From an uncultured bacterium (GTDB taxonomy: Bacteria; Gemmatimonadota; Gemmatimonadetes; Gemmatimonadales; Gemmatimonadaceae): 42,185 nucleotides of DNA. The translations under genes and the position numbers were made by a program. The notes under the pieces were generated by a model, which had not been told where the DNA came from, searched no databases, and saw nothing but the letters and a program-made list of their open reading frames with translations. The DNA is taken from the NCBI GenBank assembly GCA_963978095.1, contig CAXBQP010000027.1, forward strand, positions 1 to 42,185, in the 5' to 3' direction. Shown piece after piece: positions 1 to 19,310 of this stretch. Numbering within the stretch: position 1 is the stretch's first letter; every line of letters begins with the position of its first letter.

Positions 1-1174
<1,174 letters not shown>

Positions 1175-11485: not shown

Positions 11486-11542
11486 CTGTGAATTCATGAA
11501 ATGTTCACAGTCAGTATACGCTTACCCCAGCGCTTTTACCAA
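11486..11542 (-). promoter_or_regulatory. Putative sigma70 promoter (TTGGTA-N18-TATACT) with downstream inverted repeat CTGTGAA-N11-TTCACAG
   Basis: -10 TATACT at 11518-11513, -35 at 11542-11537, palindrome at 11486-11510, in an AT-rich gap. Confidence 0.4.
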
Positions 11543-12790
11543 GTCGGCCACCTGCCGCACTTTCGCCTCGACGATCGGCGATTCGGGAAGTACGCCTTCC
11601 ACCACGTCGAGGGTCTTGAGCCCGTTGCCGGTGATGCAGATGACCACCTCGTCCTCGAACGTGAGCTTCCCCTCACGAGCGAGCTGCACGGCGCCAGCCA
11701 CGGTCGCCCCACCGGCGGTTTCCGTGAACACGCCGGTGGTCTCGGCGAGCAACCGGATGGCGCTCACGATTTCCTCGTCGCTGACCTTGGCGCCCCAACC
11801 GCCGCTCTCCACAATGGCCTTGGCGGCGTACGGGCCGTCGGCGGGATTCCCGATCGCGATGCTCTTGGCGATCGTGTTCGGGATCTCCGGCACGATCTGC
11901 GCACCACCGCTTTCCACGAGCCGCACGATCGGTGCGCAACCACTGGCCTGCGCTCCATACAGCCGCGGGAGCGGACCACTCACCAGTTCCGCCGATTGGA
12001 ACTCGCGGAACGCTTTACGAAGCTTGGTGAGTAGCGAACCGCCGGCCATCGGCGCGATCACTGCCGTGGGCAAGCGCCAGCCGAGCTGTTCCGCGATCTC
12101 GAAGCCCATCGTCTTCGAGCCTTCACCGTAGTAGCCGCGCAGATTCACATTCACGATCCCCCAGCCGAAACGGTCGGCGAGCTGCGCGCAGAGACGATTC
12201 ACGTCGTCATAGTGTCCCTTCACCCGCACGAGGTTCGGGTTGTAGATGGCGGTGCCGAGGATCTTGGCCTGTTCGAGATTCTCGGGGATGAAGATCCAGG
12301 CGTTGAGTCCCGCGCGCGCCGCGTGCGCTGCCACGGCGTTCGCAAGATTCCCCGTCGAGGCGCAGCCGATCGTGTCCAAGCCGAGGGCGTGCGCGGCGTT
12401 GATGGCCGTCGTGACCACGCGGTCCTTGAAGGACAGCGTCGGCTGGCTGACGGCGTCGTTCTTGATCCACACACGTCCCACGCCCAGATGCGCGGCGAGG
12501 CGCGGGGCGTCGATGAGCGGCGTGAAACCGGTGTCGCGCGAATACGCCGGCTCCCCGATGAACGGAAGCCATTCACGATAACGCCAGAGGTTCGGCGCGC
12601 GGCGGGCGATCTCCTCACGCCCCGGGAGCACACGATCCTTGGGGTACCTGGGTTCGAGCGGTCCGAGGCACTTGTCGCAGATCGCGATCGGTGCCGCGTC
12701 CTGCTCGGTGCCGCAGAGCTTGCAGATCTGCGGCAGGATGCCGAGCGGGGGGCGTGACGCGGCGACGGGTTCGACCAGGGAAGTAGCCAT
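11522..12790 (-). CDS. thrC: Threonine-synthase-family PLP enzyme (fold II) of the sulfur-carrier-associated type
   Basis: N-terminal CxxC..CxxC; LWRYREWLP; PTLSFKDR (PLP Lys); CASTGNLA; EGSKT; ITGNGLKT; ATG 2 nt after the moeZ stop. Confidence 0.88.
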   Translation of the reverse strand: MATSLVEPVAASRPPLGILPQICKLCGTEQDAAPIAICDKCLGPLEPRYPKDRVLPGREEIARRAPNLWRYREWLPFIGEPAYSRDTGFTPLIDAPRLAAHLGVGRVWIKNDAVSQPTLSFKDRVVTTAINAAHALGLDTIGCASTGNLANAVAAHAARAGLNAWIFIPENLEQAKILGTAIYNPNLVRVKGHYDDVNRLCAQLADRFGWGIVNVNLRGYYGEGSKTMGFEIAEQLGWRLPTAVIAPMAGGSLLTKLRKAFREFQSAELVSGPLPRLYGAQASGCAPIVRLVESGGAQIVPEIPNTIAKSIAIGNPADGPYAAKAIVESGGWGAKVSDEEIVSAIRLLAETTGVFTETAGGATVAGAVQLAREGKLTFEDEVVICITGNGLKTLDVVEGVLPESPIVEAKVRQVADLVKALG

Positions 12791-12792
12791 GG

Positions 12793-13986
12793 TTAGTACT
12801 TGGGAATGGTGGGGTCGACGTCGTCGCTGTAGCGGGTGATCCCGCCGGTGAGGTTCCACACGCGCGTGAAGCCTGCGGCCTGCAGCGTGCGGAGCGCCTT
12901 GGCACTGCGCACGCCGCCCTTGCACTGGACGACGATGTCGCGTGAGCGATCGAGTTCGTGGAGGCGATCCGCGACGGTGGCGAGCGGAATCAACCGGGCC
13001 CCTTCGATGCGCGCGATCTCCCACTCGTGCGGTTCGCGTACGTCGATCAGATCCACGGTGCCGAGCGTGAGCCGTTCGGCGAGCTCGCGCGGCGTGATCT
13101 CGGGGAGTTCCCCGTCGCGGGCGGTGGCGGCCGCGGCTTGCGGCACGCCGCAAAACTCCTGATAGTCGATCAGCTGCGTGATTTCACGCGTGCCGCATGA
13201 CGGACATTCCGGATTCTTGCGGAGCTTCACGGTGCGGAACTTGGCATCGAGCGAATCGACGAGCAGCAGGCGGCCGATGAGCGGCTCACCGATACCGAGG
13301 ATCAGCTTGATGGCTTCGGTGGCCTGGATCGTGCCGACCAGTCCGGGCAACACACCGAGTACCCCCCCCTCGGCGCACGACGGGACGAGTCCCGGCGGCG
13401 GCGGCGACGGATACAGGCAACGGTAGCACGGGCCGTTCTCGGTGGAGAACACGGAGGCTTGTCCTTCGAACCGATAGATGCTGCCGTACACATTCGGCTT
13501 GCCGAGGATCACGCACGCGTCGTTGACGAGATAGCGCGTGGGGAAGTTGTCGGTGCCGTCGATGACGAGATCATATCCGGAGATGATCTCCAAGGCATTC
13601 TCGCTCGTGAGCGCGCGTTCGTAGGTGGTGAGCTCCACGTTGGGGTTCACGTCGCGGATCCGGTCGCGTGCCGAGTCGAGCTTCTTGCGCCCGACGTCCT
13701 TGGTGCCGTGCAAGAGCTGGCGCTGGAGGTTGGTGACATCGACGACGTCGAAGTCCACCAGGCCGATGTGTCCCACGCCGGCGGCGGCGAGGTAGAGACC
13801 GAGCGGTGATCCCAGTCCTCCGGCGCCGATGAGCAGGACGCGCGCCGCCTTGAGCTTCTTCTGCCCGGTGATCCCCACGTCGGGGATGATCAGATGGCGC
13901 GAATAGCGGAGGATCTCCTCCGGGGAGAGATCGGGAAGGGCGTCGGCGGCGGCCGACGGTTCGGGAAGGAGCGTCGCGGCGGACAT
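12793..13986 (-). CDS. moeB: MoeZ/MoeB-rhodanese fusion (ubiquitin-like protein adenylyltransferase + sulfurtransferase)
   Basis: RYSRH, GAGGLGS, NLQRQ, DGTDNFPTRYLVND, CYRC, SCAEGGVLG, CPSC; rhodanese DVREPHE...CKGGVRS. Confidence 0.93.
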   Translation of the reverse strand: MSAATLLPEPSAAADALPDLSPEEILRYSRHLIIPDVGITGQKKLKAARVLLIGAGGLGSPLGLYLAAAGVGHIGLVDFDVVDVTNLQRQLLHGTKDVGRKKLDSARDRIRDVNPNVELTTYERALTSENALEIISGYDLVIDGTDNFPTRYLVNDACVILGKPNVYGSIYRFEGQASVFSTENGPCYRCLYPSPPPPGLVPSCAEGGVLGVLPGLVGTIQATEAIKLILGIGEPLIGRLLLVDSLDAKFRTVKLRKNPECPSCGTREITQLIDYQEFCGVPQAAAATARDGELPEITPRELAERLTLGTVDLIDVREPHEWEIARIEGARLIPLATVADRLHELDRSRDIVVQCKGGVRSAKALRTLQAAGFTRVWNLTGGITRYSDDVDPTIPKY

Positions 13987-13993
13987 GGGTGAC

Positions 13994-14266
13994 TCAGCCT
14001 CCCGCGATGGCCGGTACCACCGTGAGTTCGTCGCCATCATTGACGGTCGCCGAGAATCCGCCATTGAAGCGGATGTCTTCGTCGTTCAAGTAGAAGGTCA
14101 CGTAGGCGTAGGGATTGCCGTCCGTGTCGCGGAGGCGCGGTGCGAGGTCCGGGAAGCGGGCAACGGCATCGGACACGAGTTCGCCGACGGTCGTCCCGGA
14201 GACGGGGATTTCCTTGGCATCCGCCAGCTTGGCGAGGACGGCGGGGAGGAACAGAGTAGCAGCCAC
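13994..14266 (-). CDS. Ubiquitin-like sulfur carrier protein (MoaD/ThiS family, CysO-like)
   Basis: 90 aa; LNDEDIRF..GDELTVVPAIAGG with free C-terminal GG; AGGAG RBS. Confidence 0.92.
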   Translation of the reverse strand: MAATLFLPAVLAKLADAKEIPVSGTTVGELVSDAVARFPDLAPRLRDTDGNPYAYVTFYLNDEDIRFNGGFSATVNDGDELTVVPAIAGG

Positions 14267-14305: not shown

Positions 14306-15211
14306 TCAGGCGGTCTTGCGGGCGAACGGCTCGCGCGAGAACTGGGCGAGGGCCGCGGCTTCGTTGGCGTCGATGCTGTACCAGTGTGTGGGGGACGGGA
14401 ACTGACCGGATCGCACGTCGTCGGCGTAGGAGCGGAACGCCGTCTCGACGACCTGATCGAGATTGGCGTACCGGCTCACGAACTTCGGTGCGATATCGCC
14501 GACGAAGTTGCCGAGGATGTCGTGCGAGATCACGAGCTGCCCATCGAGATGCGGGCCTGCGCCGATGCCGTAGCAGATGATGTCGAGGCGCTCGCGGATG
14601 TAGGCAGCGCTCTCGGGGGGCAGTGCCTCGAACAGGATGGCGAACGCGCCGGCCTCCTGCAGGGCGAGGGCGTCGTCGAGCACGCGCTGCGTGGCAGCGA
14701 GGGTCTTCCCCTGCACGCGATAGCCGCCCTGCTGTCCGAGCGACTGCGGGGTGAGGCCGAGGTGGCCCATCACGGCGATCCCCGCGTCGGTGATGGCGCG
14801 GACGCGACTCGCGACGCGCGCGCCCCCTTCGAGCTTCACCGCATCGCAGCCCGCAGCGATGAAGGCGCCGGCGTTGCGAATGGCGTCCTCGTCGGTGACC
14901 TGATACGAGAGGAAGGGGAGATCGCCCACCACGAAGGCCCGCTGCGCGCCGCGCGCGACGGCGCGGGCGAAGACGAGCATCTCCGTCATCGTGATGCTCA
15001 GGGTGTTGGCATGGCCGAGGACCGTCATGGCCGCTGAGTCACCAACCAGGAGGAGATCCACGCCGGCGCGATCGGCAAAGGTCGCCGTCGGGTAGTCGTA
15101 GGCGGTGACGAACACCGCCTTCTCGTCGCGTGCCTTGAGGGCGGCGAGCGTGTGGACCGTGACCTTCTTGTGGGGCGCGCGGGTCGAGCAGTTGGCGGTG
15201 GTCGTGGTCAT
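14306..15211 (-). CDS. panB: 3-methyl-2-oxobutanoate (ketopantoate) hydroxymethyltransferase
   Basis: TAYDY, LVGDS, GDLPFLSY, AVKLEGG, GHLGLTPQS, YRVQGK, GIGAG, DGQ, PKFV motifs. Confidence 0.93.
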   Translation of the reverse strand: MTTTTANCSTRAPHKKVTVHTLAALKARDEKAVFVTAYDYPTATFADRAGVDLLLVGDSAAMTVLGHANTLSITMTEMLVFARAVARGAQRAFVVGDLPFLSYQVTDEDAIRNAGAFIAAGCDAVKLEGGARVASRVRAITDAGIAVMGHLGLTPQSLGQQGGYRVQGKTLAATQRVLDDALALQEAGAFAILFEALPPESAAYIRERLDIICYGIGAGPHLDGQLVISHDILGNFVGDIAPKFVSRYANLDQVVETAFRSYADDVRSGQFPSPTHWYSIDANEAAALAQFSREPFARKTA

Positions 15212-15468
15212 GACAGGTTCTTCAGGCGAGGGGTCCAACGCAGAACGGCCATTCTCCTGGGGGGAGAACGGCCGCAAATACGCATTGACAGTGGAACTGA
15301 TCGCCTGGAGGTATCCGCGAGCGTACCGGATACGAAAATGCCCGGGGGCATAGGGGGCCACCAGGCGGTCGCGTTTTTAGCATTTCTTTAGCGTGGCTGC
15401 AATAGGCGGCAAATGACCACGGGCTTCGATTGTCTGATAAGGATCGCCGGTCTGGACGTGGAAGTCAA
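15212..15468 (-). promoter_or_regulatory. Promoter plus long structured 5' leader of the panB-sulfur-carrier operon (candidate attenuator/riboswitch)
   Basis: TTGACT (15468-15463)-N17-GATCCT; multibranch stem 15299-15370; 12-bp hairpin 15246-15274 with a G-U pair on the minus strand. Confidence 0.5.
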
Positions 15469-15512
15469 GGGGGGCGTGATGATGTTCGGGGACGCCCGGC
15501 GGTGCCCCGCTT

Positions 15513-16019
15513 CTACCTCGTGCTGAGCCGCACCTTCGGCGGGCCGTCGATCACGCTCAGCATGAGCGAATCGAAGGTCGCCGCAACGGGCGTCCCTGCG
15601 GGATACGGGTTCTTGGTGGCAAAGGAAAGGCCGAATACGTCGTCCCCGCGGGATCCTGCCTCCACCGCCATGGGTGGCCCGGGGCGCGCCTTCAGCTTCG
15701 ACCACGCGTTGCCGGGAAAGATGCGCACCAGGAAGAGCGTGGTTTCCGGCACGCCGCTCGCCGGTGGCGGAGTGAAGACGAACTCCACGGTCATCCGTGC
15801 GCCGGCGGTGGAATCGTTCCGCTCGACGGCGCGATACCGGCCCTTCCAGTAGATCGGAAAGTCCATCGCGAACTGTCCACGGGCACTCTCGAAGTGCTCA
15901 CCCGGGCCCGCGGACTCCGCGATCTGATCCGCGGCATTCTTCGGCGGGGACTTGGTGTTGGCGCCGCCGGAACACGCGGCGATCACAGCCATGGGGAACA
16001 GCAGCAGCGCGGTGCGCAT
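15513..16019 (-). CDS. Hypothetical lipoprotein
   Basis: Lipobox IAA-C after a hydrophobic N-terminus; GC3-rich codon usage. Confidence 0.7.
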   Translation of the reverse strand: MRTALLLFPMAVIAACSGGANTKSPPKNAADQIAESAGPGEHFESARGQFAMDFPIYWKGRYRAVERNDSTAGARMTVEFVFTPPPASGVPETTLFLVRIFPGNAWSKLKARPGPPMAVEAGSRGDDVFGLSFATKNPYPAGTPVAATFDSLMLSVIDGPPKVRLSTR

Positions 16020-16170: not shown

Positions 16171-16243
16171 TGGGGTGTAGCTCAACTGGCAGAGCATCGC
16201 ACTGTTAATGCGACGGTTGGTGGTTCGATTCCACCCGCTCCAG
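16171..16243 (+). tRNA. tRNA-Asn (GTT), CCA not encoded
   Basis: Acceptor TGGGGTG/CGCTCCA+G; D arm GCTC..GAGC; anticodon arm TCGCA-CTGTTAA-TGCGA; T arm GGTGG-TTCGATT-CCACC. Confidence 0.96.
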
Positions 16244-16261
16244 CGTCTTCCTGACATAAGC

Positions 16262-16827: not shown

Positions 16828-17295
16828 CTACCCCCGCCGGGCGTACACGCTCGACTTCCCGTCACGCGTGAAGGCGATCACCTGATAGGGTTGTTTCGGC
16901 CCATCGTCCATCCCCGGCGGGCCGTTCACCATCCCCGGGACCGACAGGCCGACGATCTTCGGCTTCTCCGTCAGCATTTTCCGCACGAGATCCGCGGGTA
17001 CATGCCCTTCGACCACGTAGGAGCCGATCAGCCCGGTGTGGCACGACTCCATCGAAGGGAGCACGCCGGCGCTGCGCTTGATTTCCGAAAGGTCGTCCAT
17101 GTCGATGACCTTCAGGTCAAACCCTTCATTCTTCATGTACGCGATCCAGCTCTTGCAGCATCCGCAGCTGGGACTCTTGTACACCGTCATCTTGAGCGGC
17201 GGTGCGCCTCGCGCTCCGGCCAATACGCCGCGGGGCGACAGCGCGGCCAACGCACCGAGCGCCGAGGCGACTCCGAGGAACTTCCGGCGATCCAT
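16828..17295 (-). CDS. DUF411/CopG-family metal-binding protein with Tat signal
   Basis: MDRRKFL twin-arginine; YKSPSCGCC, SCHT, EGHVP, VPGM..GPPGM; GGAGG RBS. Confidence 0.88.
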   Translation of the reverse strand: MDRRKFLGVASALGALAALSPRGVLAGARGAPPLKMTVYKSPSCGCCKSWIAYMKNEGFDLKVIDMDDLSEIKRSAGVLPSMESCHTGLIGSYVVEGHVPADLVRKMLTEKPKIVGLSVPGMVNGPPGMDDGPKQPYQVIAFTRDGKSSVYARRG

Positions 17296-17306
17296 GATCC
17301 CCTCCG

Positions 17307-19310
17307 TTACGGTTGCGTCGCGGGTGGCGTCGCCTGCCACACGTTGTTCGTACGGTCGGTGTCCACCAAGCGATTGTCCGGGTCGAGCTCGATCCGTACG
17401 ACCTTCTTCCCCGTGAAGTTGTACTGCCGCACGTAGCGAACCGTGTTCGTGCTCCACACCTCGGCCGGATAGTTGTAATCCGTCGTCGTGCCATCGCTGA
17501 ACGTGAAACGCGCACGGATCGGCAATACGCCCCGGGCGTGATTGCCGAAGGCGACCACATACTGCGTCGTATCGCCCTTGCTGCGCGCGCTGACGTCATC
17601 GACCCCCTGATCGAAATGCGGGTTCTCGATGAACCACTCCCGGAAGAACCAGTCGAGACGTCGACCACCCACATCTTCCATCGTGCGGAAGAAATCGGCA
17701 GGCGTGGGATGCTTGAACGCCCAGCGCTTGGTGTAGGCGCGGAACGCATCGTCAAAGGCCTCGGGACCGAGGATCTCCTGACGCAGCAGTTGCAATCCGA
17801 CCGACGGCTTCACGTATGCCTGGAAGCCGAGAAGGTTCGGGTCGATGCGATCGGGGCCGACGTTGATCGTGCGGTCCATCTGCGACCGCATCAGGTTTTC
17901 GATCATCGCGCGCTCCTGCGCGGCACGCTTCATCTGGTCCCCACCCTCGGGATACCGCTTCGCCTCCGAGAACGTGTTGATGAAGGTGTTGAATCCCTCG
18001 TCCTGCCACATGTACACGCGCTCGTTGCTGCCGACGATCATCGGGTACCACATATGCCCGATCTCGTGCGTCACGACGTTGTACAACTCCTGTTTGGTGT
18101 CGCTCTTGGTCTCCATCGCGATCATCGGATACTCCATGCCGCTGATCGGTCCTTCCACCGCCGAAATGTGCGGCCACGGATACGGGAACCACCGCTCCGA
18201 GTATTCCTGGATGCTCATGCGGCTCATGTCGGCCGCTTCCTTCCAGAGCGCCGCCGCCGACGGCCGGTAATACGCGAAGGCCATCGTGCCCTTGTAACTC
18301 GACGCGTCCCACTGATACTCCGGACTCGCGGCCCACACCGCGTCGCGCACATTCTTGGCGGTGAACTTCCACGTCTGCATCCCGTCCTTCTTGGGACGCG
18401 CCGCACCGCTCTTGAGTTCGTCGGCGGTGATGATGCTCACGACGTTCTCCGACTTGGCGGCGTCGGCGAGCCGCGCGATCTGCGCCGGCGTGAGCACCTC
18501 TTTCGCATTGTCGAGTGAGCCCGTGGCGGCCACGACATATCCGGCCGGAACCGTCACGCTGAGCGTGAAGTCGCCGTACTCCAGATAGAACTCGCCCTGC
18601 CCGAGATAGGGCTCGATGTTCCAGCCGCGCACGTCGTCGTACACGGCCACACGCGGATACCACTGGGCAATCTCGTAGAGCGTGCCGTCACGCCCCATGC
18701 GGTCCGCCCCGTGCTCGGGGACGGGAAAGCTGTACGCGATGCTGATCGTGGCCGAACGGCCCGGTGCCAGGGGTTCGGCGAGATGCACCTTGAACATCGT
18801 CTCGTTCTCGCGCGTCGACACGGGGACGCGACGCATGGGCTTGCCCCCCATCGCGGGCAGCACCTGCTCCACACGCGAGAAGGCATAGCCGCCCGCAAAG
18901 TCACGGGCGCCGAACCGTGACCCTTGCGGGAAGATGAACGCGTTGAGCGAGTTGGCCTTGAACGCGTTCTGTTCGGTCTGCAACCAAATGAACGTCAACG
19001 TGTCCGGCGAGTTGTTGGTGTACTTCAACGTCATCTCGCCCGAAACGGACTTGTGGGCGGTGTCGAGGGTGGCCTTCAAATCGTAATCGGCCTTGTTCTG
19101 CCAGTAGCGCGCGCCCGGGGCGCCGCTGCCCGTCCGCACGGCGCTCGGACTGGTCCCGATCACCAGGGGGGCGAAGATCGAGGTATCCCCCACACCGGTC
19201 AGGTCCATCTTCGGGCGCGCCCCTCCCACCGGATTGATCGACGCGACCTGAGCACCCACGGTGCCGGCGACCAGTACCAACCCTGCCACTCCACGCAGCA
19301 ACCGCTTCAC
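17307..19310 (-). CDS. Exported M1-family metallo-aminopeptidase
   Basis: GMEYP exopeptidase motif; HEIGH..WQDEG; YWQN, AQWYPR, HPTPADFFR; GGAGG RBS before GTG 19310 (alternative ATG 19346). Confidence 0.9.
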   Translation of the reverse strand: MKRLLRGVAGLVLVAGTVGAQVASINPVGGARPKMDLTGVGDTSIFAPLVIGTSPSAVRTGSGAPGARYWQNKADYDLKATLDTAHKSVSGEMTLKYTNNSPDTLTFIWLQTEQNAFKANSLNAFIFPQGSRFGARDFAGGYAFSRVEQVLPAMGGKPMRRVPVSTRENETMFKVHLAEPLAPGRSATISIAYSFPVPEHGADRMGRDGTLYEIAQWYPRVAVYDDVRGWNIEPYLGQGEFYLEYGDFTLSVTVPAGYVVAATGSLDNAKEVLTPAQIARLADAAKSENVVSIITADELKSGAARPKKDGMQTWKFTAKNVRDAVWAASPEYQWDASSYKGTMAFAYYRPSAAALWKEAADMSRMSIQEYSERWFPYPWPHISAVEGPISGMEYPMIAMETKSDTKQELYNVVTHEIGHMWYPMIVGSNERVYMWQDEGFNTFINTFSEAKRYPEGGDQMKRAAQERAMIENLMRSQMDRTINVGPDRIDPNLLGFQAYVKPSVGLQLLRQEILGPEAFDDAFRAYTKRWAFKHPTPADFFRTMEDVGGRRLDWFFREWFIENPHFDQGVDDVSARSKGDTTQYVVAFGNHARGVLPIRARFTFSDGTTTDYNYPAEVWSTNTVRYVRQYNFTGKKVVRIELDPDNRLVDTDRTNNVWQATPPATQP

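Follow-up and report, generated by a model that had tools for sequence, protein, structure and literature searches.

S-Adenosylmethionine (SAM)-II riboswitches, as passages of Corbino 2005 (PMC1273637) describe them, combine a helix (P1) with a pseudoknot, lie with P1 just downstream of a promoter, often carry a transcription terminator, and are read as OFF switches. In S. meliloti, according to sections of Scheuer 2022 (PMC9373788), such a terminator closes the metZ SAM-II leader, with a further one in the leader of metA. Here, we describe the leader RNA of a panB-headed operon in a 42,185-nucleotide (nt) stretch of DNA from an uncultured bacterium of the Gemmatimonadaceae (phylum Gemmatimonadota; assembly GCA_963978095.1, contig CAXBQP010000027.1), the whole of which we refer to as the window. 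This leader, taken as the 229 nt of the minus strand at 15212..15440, directly before the panB-like gene that starts at 15211, is very probably a SAM-II class riboswitch that turns the operon off by premature transcription termination.

The locus resembles the SAM-II systems (RF00521; the metA motif in passages of PMC1273637) in its P1, in its AUUU/UUGC/GCUAAA core, in having a putative promoter directly before P1 and a predicted intrinsic terminator between the aptamer and the open reading frame (ORF), and in the methionine genes downstream. It differs in its host, the known ones being Proteobacteria and Bacteroidetes, in that its first regulated gene encodes a PanB homologue, and in that the long complement of the variable loop stretch between AUUU and UUGC (L2) is found in the apex of the terminator rather than right past GCUAAA. 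The metZ leader, in the sections of PMC9373788 that deal with it, likewise consists of an aptamer followed by a Rho-independent terminator, yielding a short leader RNA, and the additional downstream terminator of metA is comparable to the second hairpin of our leader (T2, below) and to a 176-nt contig that reaches it. That extra metA terminator is, however, not predicted in those sections to be SAM-controlled, the aptamer controlling metA translation instead, whereas here two predicted tandem hairpins precede one start codon. A literature search gave nothing joining a Gemmatimonad with SAM-II, and among the matches listed for riboswitch, panB, S-adenosylmethionine, and ketopantoate, as far as their listed text goes, there was no link between a SAM riboswitch and panB. 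The RNA itself extends a class described as early as 2005 to a further phylum and a further type of operon, with little else that is new, and its leaders provide a clean comparative set for the wiring of the SAM-II pseudoknot to a terminator (loop versus apex, and tandem hairpins).

Results and Discussion

A SAM-II Aptamer Match at the 5′ End of the Leader

At Rfam gathering scores, the whole window matches only ALIL and tRNA families, with no match in the leader and none to the pan motif. A permissive scan of 15100-15600 returned a full-length SAM_alpha (RF00521) match with a score of 35.3 bits (E 2.3e-6), which a search of the whole genome recovers as well; the same scan gave a weaker SAM-II long loop match and two chance snoRNA matches, and no other family at E ≤ 10. 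The SAM_alpha match forms the first 75 nt, and hence the 5′ third, of the interval that a first-pass annotation had marked as a structured leader of unassigned class, and was overlooked there; the three-way junction and the long hairpin that this annotation described both lie downstream of the aptamer. Its more general proposal, a riboswitch-type leader on the minus strand with a sensor followed by an expression platform, is borne out, and the sulfur metabolite that it named among the possible ligands would be SAM, judging from the aptamer class.

The aptamer recurs widely among relatives of this bacterium. The window's own genome holds a second SAM_alpha match (33.5 bits) before metF-metH, and a search of 41 related genomes gave a match at E ≤ 0.01 in 34 and one over the cut-off in 31. 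For comparison of the gene downstream, we define class A PanB as proteins with at least 71% identity to that of the window, in distinction to a class B with 44-50% identity. All 12 class A relatives carry a SAM_alpha match upstream on the same strand, and so do 17 of the 19 further class A loci found in an order-wide sample of 201 genomes (each with a completeness of 90% or more, and with class A there set at 65% identity or above). The scores at these 17 orthologous leaders range from 33.3 to 60.6 bits, 13 of them being over the cut-off, and the two loci without a match are L089, whose contig starts 1.7 kb upstream, and L096.

Aligning 49 aptamers (44 distinct sequences, the window's included), we find that the AUUU, UUGC, CCACG, and GCUAAA elements of the core are invariant in 49/49. 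The six pairs of P1 are paired in 100% of cells across the 44 distinct sequences, five of them without any variation and one being CG in 26 and UG in 18. Of the P2 pseudoknot, the conserved GC/GC is present together with one covarying pair. This pair, formed by the final base of the loop with a base downstream and presented in passages of Barrick and Breaker 2007 (PMC2258182) as a SAM-II prediction, is GC in 13 sequences, AU in 10, GU in 6, CG in 1, and UA in 1, with other combinations in 13. The proximal P2, in which L2 pairs with bases 3-4 nt past GCUAAA, has 3 base pairs (bp) with 93.9% of cells paired, one of these pairs appearing as GC in 24 sequences and as CG in 14. By its sequence, P1, core, genomic context, and terminator, the leader RNA is assigned to SAM-II, its variable pseudoknot helix being the one feature that we place only tentatively.

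Two further observations concern the distribution of such aptamers. In locus L095 of genome G063, SAM_alpha matches at 138-213 (minus strand, 60.6 bits) and 421-494 (plus strand, 35.5 bits) stand back to back, an arrangement suggestive of two divergent operons under SAM-II control. In the freshwater metagenome run X5 (DNA), a 517-nt contig matches only the aptamer (15357-15421), with five differences and one 1-nt deletion, and departs from the window beyond it; other organisms of this sample carry near-identical aptamers with different flanks.

Terminator-like Hairpins in the Related Leaders

Among 19 unique panB-type leaders, a common order is maintained: a promoter-like CTTGAC/TAnnnT pair, which ends 5-6 nt before a conserved ACAAU, is followed by the aptamer and then by a G+C-rich hairpin with a U tract (H1), with T2 as a further hairpin in 13 of the 19. 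Orthologous leaders range in length from about 75 to 145 nt. We positioned the promoter of the window by eye against these leaders (CTTGAC, 17-18 nt, TAnnnT, 5-6 nt, ACAAT), and a scan for the sigma-70 consensus found no such site by its own criteria. From this arrangement, we infer a transcription start near A15433, the A of the conserved ACAAUCGAAG.

H1 appears in the minimum-energy fold of the leader, and the hairpin alone has a predicted energy of -14.4 kcal/mol. A per-sequence hairpin finder located a hairpin with a U tract directly past the aptamer in 45 of 49 SAM-II leaders from all gene contexts, missing it in L038, L024, L028, and L002 (44/48 when leader L006, from genome G006, is left out). 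RNAalifold applied to a MAFFT alignment of this first terminator from the 19 leaders produced four spurious pairs and was discarded, the failure being due to stems that lie in different registers. Leader L002 consists of the metF-metH aptamer of the window's genome (G000:C41:19678-19752) plus ~150 nt downstream; in it, as in L028, the loop:hairpin complement CGAGGC:GCCUCG is kept with no U tract past the hairpin, unlike in most relatives.

T2 corresponds to a hairpin that the first-pass annotation had given as 12 bp, CGGCCGUUCUCC-CCCCA-GGAGAAUGGCCG at 15274-15246. These 12 pairs, one of them G-U, are present, and the helix extends to 13 bp with 15275/15245. RNAalifold on 12 of the 13 T2 hairpins (L069 being left out) gives 11 consensus pairs, four of which show compensatory changes, and a U-rich tail (TTTTTT, TTTTT, or TTTCGTTTT) follows in 8 of the 12. 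T2 was located by its GGCCG...CGGCC foot; an automatic search chose unrelated G-U-rich pairings in several leaders and was discarded.

Complementarity between L2 and the Terminator Apex

In most related leaders, L2 is complementary to the upper 5′ strand and apical loop of H1, the complement in the window being GGUGGC (15362-15357). The two partners change together between types of leader, with GCCGCC:GGCGGC, GCCGCG:CGCGGC, UGCCGC:GCGGCA, UGCCCG:CGGGCA, GGAGGC:GCCUCC, CGAGGC:GCCUCG, and GCGGCG:CGCCGC all being found as matched L2:terminator types. A Watson-Crick run of at least 6 between L2 and its own terminator is present in 38 of 63 unique leaders (37/62 without L006), as against 303 of 3350 comparisons (9.0%) of L2 with a terminator of another type; in an earlier version of this test, the counts were 28/49 (27/48 without L006) for the leader's own terminator and 25/1140 for those of other types. 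None of our claims depends on genomes G006, G087, G098, or G208 alone.

The position of the complement is also regular, as it begins 11-17 nt past GCUAAA in most of the 16 L2 types, with exceptions for GCGGCG (27-28 nt), for two GCGC types (24 and 40), and for GCCGCC and GGAGGC in some leaders. Shuffles of the L2 complement for individual types gave marginal outcomes for three of them (94, 164, and 79 of 2000) and no significance for the other eight, the type of the window among them; it is the spread of the types, together with the constant position, that carries the case. In the window, five of the six bases of GGUGGC also belong to the H1 stems, and the L2 pairing and the terminator would therefore be mutually exclusive. 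In the canonical leaders of the genus, L2 is also complementary, over 7-8 bp, to AGGCGGC in the 5′ foot of T2; as read from the leader sequences, this foot further includes GGCGGCCG, with which CGACCGCC upstream of H1 can pair. We infer that the pairing between L2 and the terminator, which covaries between leaders, is the antiterminator of a SAM-OFF switch.

Proposed Mechanism and Points That Weigh against It

In the mechanism that we propose, transcription would start a few bases before P1, near 15433, and the first ~60 nt would fold into the SAM-II pseudoknot, with P1, the AUUU/UUGC/GCUAAA core, and the short proximal P2. With SAM bound, L2 would be kept in the aptamer through a proximal P2 stacked on the conserved core, such that the 15366-15340 hairpin and its U tract would form and transcription would end. 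When no SAM is bound, L2 would instead capture its complement at the top of the H1 5′ strand and apical loop (GGUGGC in the window; GGCGGC, CGCGGC, GCCUCC, and others in relatives) before the 3′ strand of H1 exists, and the polymerase would read through. The loop of a SAM-II aptamer may in this way toggle between a short partner within the aptamer and a longer partner in the terminator apex. T2 (15275-15245) could serve as a back-up terminator or as a stable 3′ end of the leader, and in the canonical leaders, either L2 or the 5′ flank of H1, once freed, could hold the 5′ foot of T2, which would couple it to the same decision. The OFF direction is suggested by the nature of the regulated genes and by the published reading of terminator-bearing SAM-II leaders as OFF switches (in passages of PMC1273637, PMC2258182, and PMC9373788).

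Several observations weigh against this assignment. The RF00521 score of the window lies 0.7 bit under the gathering score of 36, and as five pairs of P1 are invariant and the sixth is CG or UG, P1 is without covariation in our set. The proximal P2 has only 3 bp, which chance could supply in G+C-rich sequence, and the long partner of L2 is away from its place in the Rfam consensus (~2 nt past GCUAAAG, by our reading of the printed consensus), its location here being within the terminator, another 14-17 nt downstream. The window's own L2 and terminator match over four Watson-Crick pairs, or over six pairs with one G-U, and its H1 is followed by a tract of only 4 U. The metF leader of the same genome has no U tract past its hairpin at all, and the tail of T2 in this lineage is weak, consisting only of UCUGCGUU. 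Finally, were the distal L2 pairing to belong to the SAM-bound state, the switch would be ON.

Transcript data for the locus are sparse. Of 19 public runs that hold part of 14700-15700, one is recorded as RNA, and four runs were compared, all as contigs. In this metatranscriptome run (X11), a single contig of 176 nt falls on the stretch, at 15421-15246 with a depth of 3.2, and none falls over panB; it covers the leader from the opening base of P1 through the penultimate paired base of T2. As it is a contig, possibly from DNA in the library, it shows no start, end, strand, or level, and at most it hints that leader RNA extending to T2 is more abundant than the mRNA. The 3′ end that the first-pass annotation proposed to look for near 15240 may be marked by the long hairpin close to 15246, the same contig being a weak hint of it. 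This contig also runs through H1 to the foot of T2, which amounts to read-through of H1 and is a further point against termination there.

The coordinates of the leader elements and of the operon genes are collected in Table 1.

Table 1. Features of the leader and of the operon that follows it, in window coordinates
Feature	Position	Strand	Details
Putative promoter	15439..15467	-	-35 TTGACT 15467-15462, 17-nt spacer, weak -10 GATCCT 15444-15439
SAM-II (SAM_alpha) aptamer	15356..15430	-	RF00521 by cmscan, model positions 1-79
Aptamer P1	15421-15416 with 15397-15392	-	
Aptamer CAUUU	15415-15411	-	
Variable loop stretch L2	15410-15403	-	GCCGCCUA, between AUUU and UUGC
Aptamer UUGC	15402-15399	-	
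Aptamer GCUAAA	15381-15376	-	
Proximal P2 partner GCG	15372-15370	-	pairs with CGC 15408-15406
Terminator-like hairpin H1 with tail	15330..15366	-	GCCUGG 15366-15361/CCGGGC 15345-15340; inner GGC/GCC; AUUUUCGUAU 15339-15330
Lineage-specific hairpin	15311..15333	-	GUAUCCG-GUACGCUCG-CGGAUAC; -8.5 kcal/mol; in window, L063, L035 only
Closing-helix 3′ strand	15299..15308	-	CCAGGCGAUC; pairs with 15370-15361 at 9/10 positions
Hairpin T2 with tail	15237..15275	-	13 bp GCGGCCGUUCUCC-CCCCA-GGAGAAUGGCCGU 15275-15245; weak tail UCUGCGUU 15244-15237; -23.6 kcal/mol
panB-like gene (class A PanB), first of operon	14306..15211	-	PF02548 1.7e-99, 332.9 bits; TIGR00222 285.6 bits (cut-off 207.55)
ThiS/MoaD-like sulfur carrier, metO-like	13994..14266	-	90 aa, ends GG; PF02597 8.3e-11
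MoeZ-like adenylyltransferase/sulfurtransferase (ThiF + rhodanese)	12793..14064	-	start codon uncertain; PF00899 2.2e-83, PF00581 3.2e-18; MoeZ/MoeB models
Threonine-synthase homologue, metM-like, last of operon	11522..12769	-	PF00291 3.3e-65; TIGR00260 251.6 bits

Alternative Readings of the Leader

The same SAM-II aptamer could instead be part of an ON switch, in which the bound state would have as its P2a the helix formed by L2 and the apex of the terminator, displaced 14-17 nt downstream, and SAM would prevent the terminator and raise expression. This reading agrees with the Rfam consensus, which, as printed, pairs the variable loop stretch with the 3′ tail in the bound state, and with the finding, in the part of Corbino 2005 (PMC1273637) that treats it, that P2 is required for the SAM response. 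The distal helix, with 6-7 bp, would moreover make a better P2a than the 3-bp proximal one, and since in the window five of its six bases are also part of the terminator stem, it would exclude the terminator. We nevertheless consider an ON switch unlikely, as the regulated genes (metF-metH and metM/metO/moeZ) make homocysteine and methionine, and we know of no precedent for the induction of de novo methionine or homocysteine synthesis by SAM. No other antiterminator candidate could be seen by eye in the compared leaders, so that under an ON reading, the free state would always terminate. The terminator-bearing SAM-II leaders described in passages of PMC1273637, PMC2258182, and PMC9373788 are also read as OFF switches.

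Highly improbable, in our view, is the model of the first-pass annotation, in which a three-way-junction aptamer at 15370-15299, possibly akin to the pan motif, would sense coenzyme A (CoA), pantothenate, or another sulfur metabolite and the 12-bp hairpin would act as the expression platform. All four helices of that model do lie on the minus strand where it put them, including the 5-bp hairpin AUGCC-CCCG-GGCAU (15351-15338) and the 7-bp hairpin GUAUCCG..CGGAUAC (15333-15311), but the closing helix (15370-15361/15308-15299) is not fully paired, a C15368/A15301 mismatch leaving 9 of 10 pairs. What speaks for the junction is that this closing helix is part of the local minimum-energy fold of 15372-15295 (-29.8 kcal/mol, compared to -26.9 kcal/mol with the terminator hairpin enforced) and that the gene downstream is annotated as panB. 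The folding energy of the whole leader adds little, as the 229-nt sense strand (-83.6 kcal/mol) beats its shuffles with z -3.9 and the antisense strand does so too with z -3.3, such that stability by itself says little.

Against the junction, its closing helix is seen, among the 19 panB-type leaders, only in the window and three close relatives (L063, L035, and L038), and its middle hairpin, the GUAUCCG one, only in the window and two of these (L063 and L035). Most orthologous leaders pass directly from the terminator to T2, and four are without T2 as well. Of the helices in question, conservation in orthologous leaders thus extends to the 12/13-bp hairpin, in the 12 aligned leaders of the genus, and not to the closing helix or the GUAUCCG hairpin. 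What had been taken for the 5′ strand of the closing helix is in fact the 5′ strand of the terminator hairpin conserved in related leaders, and a complete SAM-II aptamer, whose pseudoknot is the sensor in our reading, lies directly upstream. The leader resembles the pan motif only in lying upstream of a panB-annotated gene, and a search of 15100-15600 on both strands with all 4227 Rfam families gave no pan match at E ≤ 10. As panC was found in only one of the 24 genomes that represent the genus, and not in that of the window, a pantothenate signal would furthermore have no pathway to regulate. Under the SAM-II OFF switch, the closing helix would be an alternative fold only for transcripts past the first terminator: its 3′ strand pairs with 15370-15361 and so excludes H1, and it is thermodynamically preferred in the finished transcript by the energies above, but, being made after the U tract of H1, this strand cannot decide termination there.

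Leader coding or leader-peptide attenuation, through a 53-codon ORF (15383-15222) or an in-frame extension of panB to GTG 15361, can be given hardly any weight and was rejected, since although both frames are open in the window, the closest relatives L063 and L035 have a 1-nt deletion within them, the panB frame of L063 opens only 18 nt before the aligned start, and the length of the leader varies among orthologues as given above. A dispersed repeat was likewise ruled out, as 15230-15375 occurs once in the genome.

The Operon and a Possible Route to Homoserine

The gene content of the operon fits a methionine regulon, to judge from the families of its products. A thiocarboxylate route by which MetM, MetO, and MoeZ convert O-phosphohomoserine to homocysteine has been described (Hasebe 2024, as relayed in passages of the GapMind preprint, 10.1101/2024.10.14.618325), and the metO-like, moeZ, and metM-like genes would fit this route to homocysteine. 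The operon shares with it a threonine-synthase homologue, a carrier that ends in GG, and a ThiF-rhodanese MoeZ; here, however, a PanB homologue heads the operon, and the assignment of MetM is made by family and context. Contig C55 carries a separate second thrC next to thrB, neither of which has a hom neighbor.

The enzyme behind the leader is a more novel lead than the RNA. The class A PanB of the window scores about 217 bits against 1OY0, the structure of M. tuberculosis PanB, and no other PanB was found in its genome. Likewise, panC (PF02569) was found neither in that genome (91% complete) nor in 23 of the 24 genomes of the genus, among them the 10 other members with class A PanB. In the 16 genomes with panC, this gene adjoins a class B PanB (about 46% identical) wherever coordinates were compared. 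In the order-wide sample, class A is present in 24 of 201 genomes, 20 of which have a class B copy too.

The distribution of the homoserine dehydrogenase gene hom (PF00742), which was detected in 14/14 control genomes, sets class A genomes apart. It was found in 108 of the 201 genomes, namely in 2 of the 24 with class A PanB (G072 and G108) as against 106 of the 177 others (105/174 without G087, G098, and G208), with a Fisher p of 1e-6 that is too favorable, given that related genomes are not independent of each other. Within genera g1, g4, and g13, the same contrast is seen again, with g19 as an exception. A metM-like gene (at least 67% identity) is present in 18 of the 41 related genomes, and hom was found in 2 of the 13 of these with class A PanB and in 4 of the 5 without. 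In the window's genome, which has thrB, thrC, and the metM-like gene, hom was not found.

The neighborhoods of class A PanB hold further enzymes of interest. At least 13 loci have a class I/II aminotransferase next to class A PanB; in G020 and G002, its gene separates panB from the leader, and in G027, it immediately precedes the leader. The most complete operon that we encountered is that of L070 (1519-6722) and L072 (1481-4973), both from Gemmatimonadaceae, where the SAM-II leader is followed by the aminotransferase, class A PanB, a thrB equivalog (TIGR00191, 207.7 bits against a cut-off of 168.25), and moeZ. SAM-II matches also occur at metM-like genes in genomes that do not have class A PanB, directly before the gene in G031 and G033 and, as a partial match, ~1.9 kb before it in G012.

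Taking these observations together, we tentatively propose that the SAM-II-controlled class A PanB is part of an undescribed natural homoserine/homocysteine route that replaces homoserine dehydrogenase in these Gemmatimonadota, a possibility that we take seriously while holding it to be somewhat short of probable. In such a route, class A PanB would transfer the one-carbon (C1) unit of 5,10-methylene-tetrahydrofolate to pyruvate, rather than to 2-oxoisovalerate, giving 4-hydroxy-2-oxobutanoate, which the linked class I/II aminotransferase would convert to homoserine. ThrB would then form O-phosphohomoserine, from which MetM, with MetO and MoeZ, would produce homocysteine. The synthetic homoserine cycle, as passages of 10.1101/2025.02.17.638773 present it, likewise leads from pyruvate and a C1 unit through 4-hydroxy-2-oxobutanoate to homoserine, and in the same passages, a P. 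putida hom deletion strain that overexpressed its own PanB showed partial growth with sarcosine. The enzyme logic of that cycle (C1 addition to pyruvate, transaminase, homoserine kinase) is the same as that of the genes around class A PanB; the cycle of those passages is, however, engineered and uses free formaldehyde and aldolases. A literature search on 4-hydroxy-2-oxobutanoate with PanB and homoserine found no natural route described.

Three points count against this proposal. In the order-wide sample, 71 genomes are without both hom and class A PanB; threonine synthesis would come to depend on a SAM-repressed gene; and 22 positions that separate the PanB classes could not be tied to substrate contacts and were not used. 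If the proposal is true, there would be a folate-dependent natural route from pyruvate to homoserine, a chemistry so far discussed as engineered C1 assimilation. The larger value of the locus lies in the gene, a SAM-controlled PanB paralogue within a MetM/MetO/MoeZ operon in genomes without panC and homoserine dehydrogenase.

Neighboring Features of the Window

Directly upstream of the leader is an ORF of 168 amino acids (15513-16019, minus strand) whose start resembles that of a lipoprotein (..AVIAACSGG..) and which matches nothing in Pfam or NCBIfam; a C-terminal stretch related to it also precedes the leader in L038. On the opposite strand, ~700 nt upstream of the leader, is a tRNA-Asn (GUU) at 16171-16244, and a DUF411 protein with a twin-arginine-like signal, RRKFLGVASALGALAAL, is encoded at 16828-17457 (minus strand), with no connection to the finding. 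The ALIL match noted above is a pseudoknot (RF01497) at 780-896 (minus strand, 83.7 bits), which we take to be the frameshift signal of IS3-family transposases, and an insertion sequence is probably located at the start of the window.

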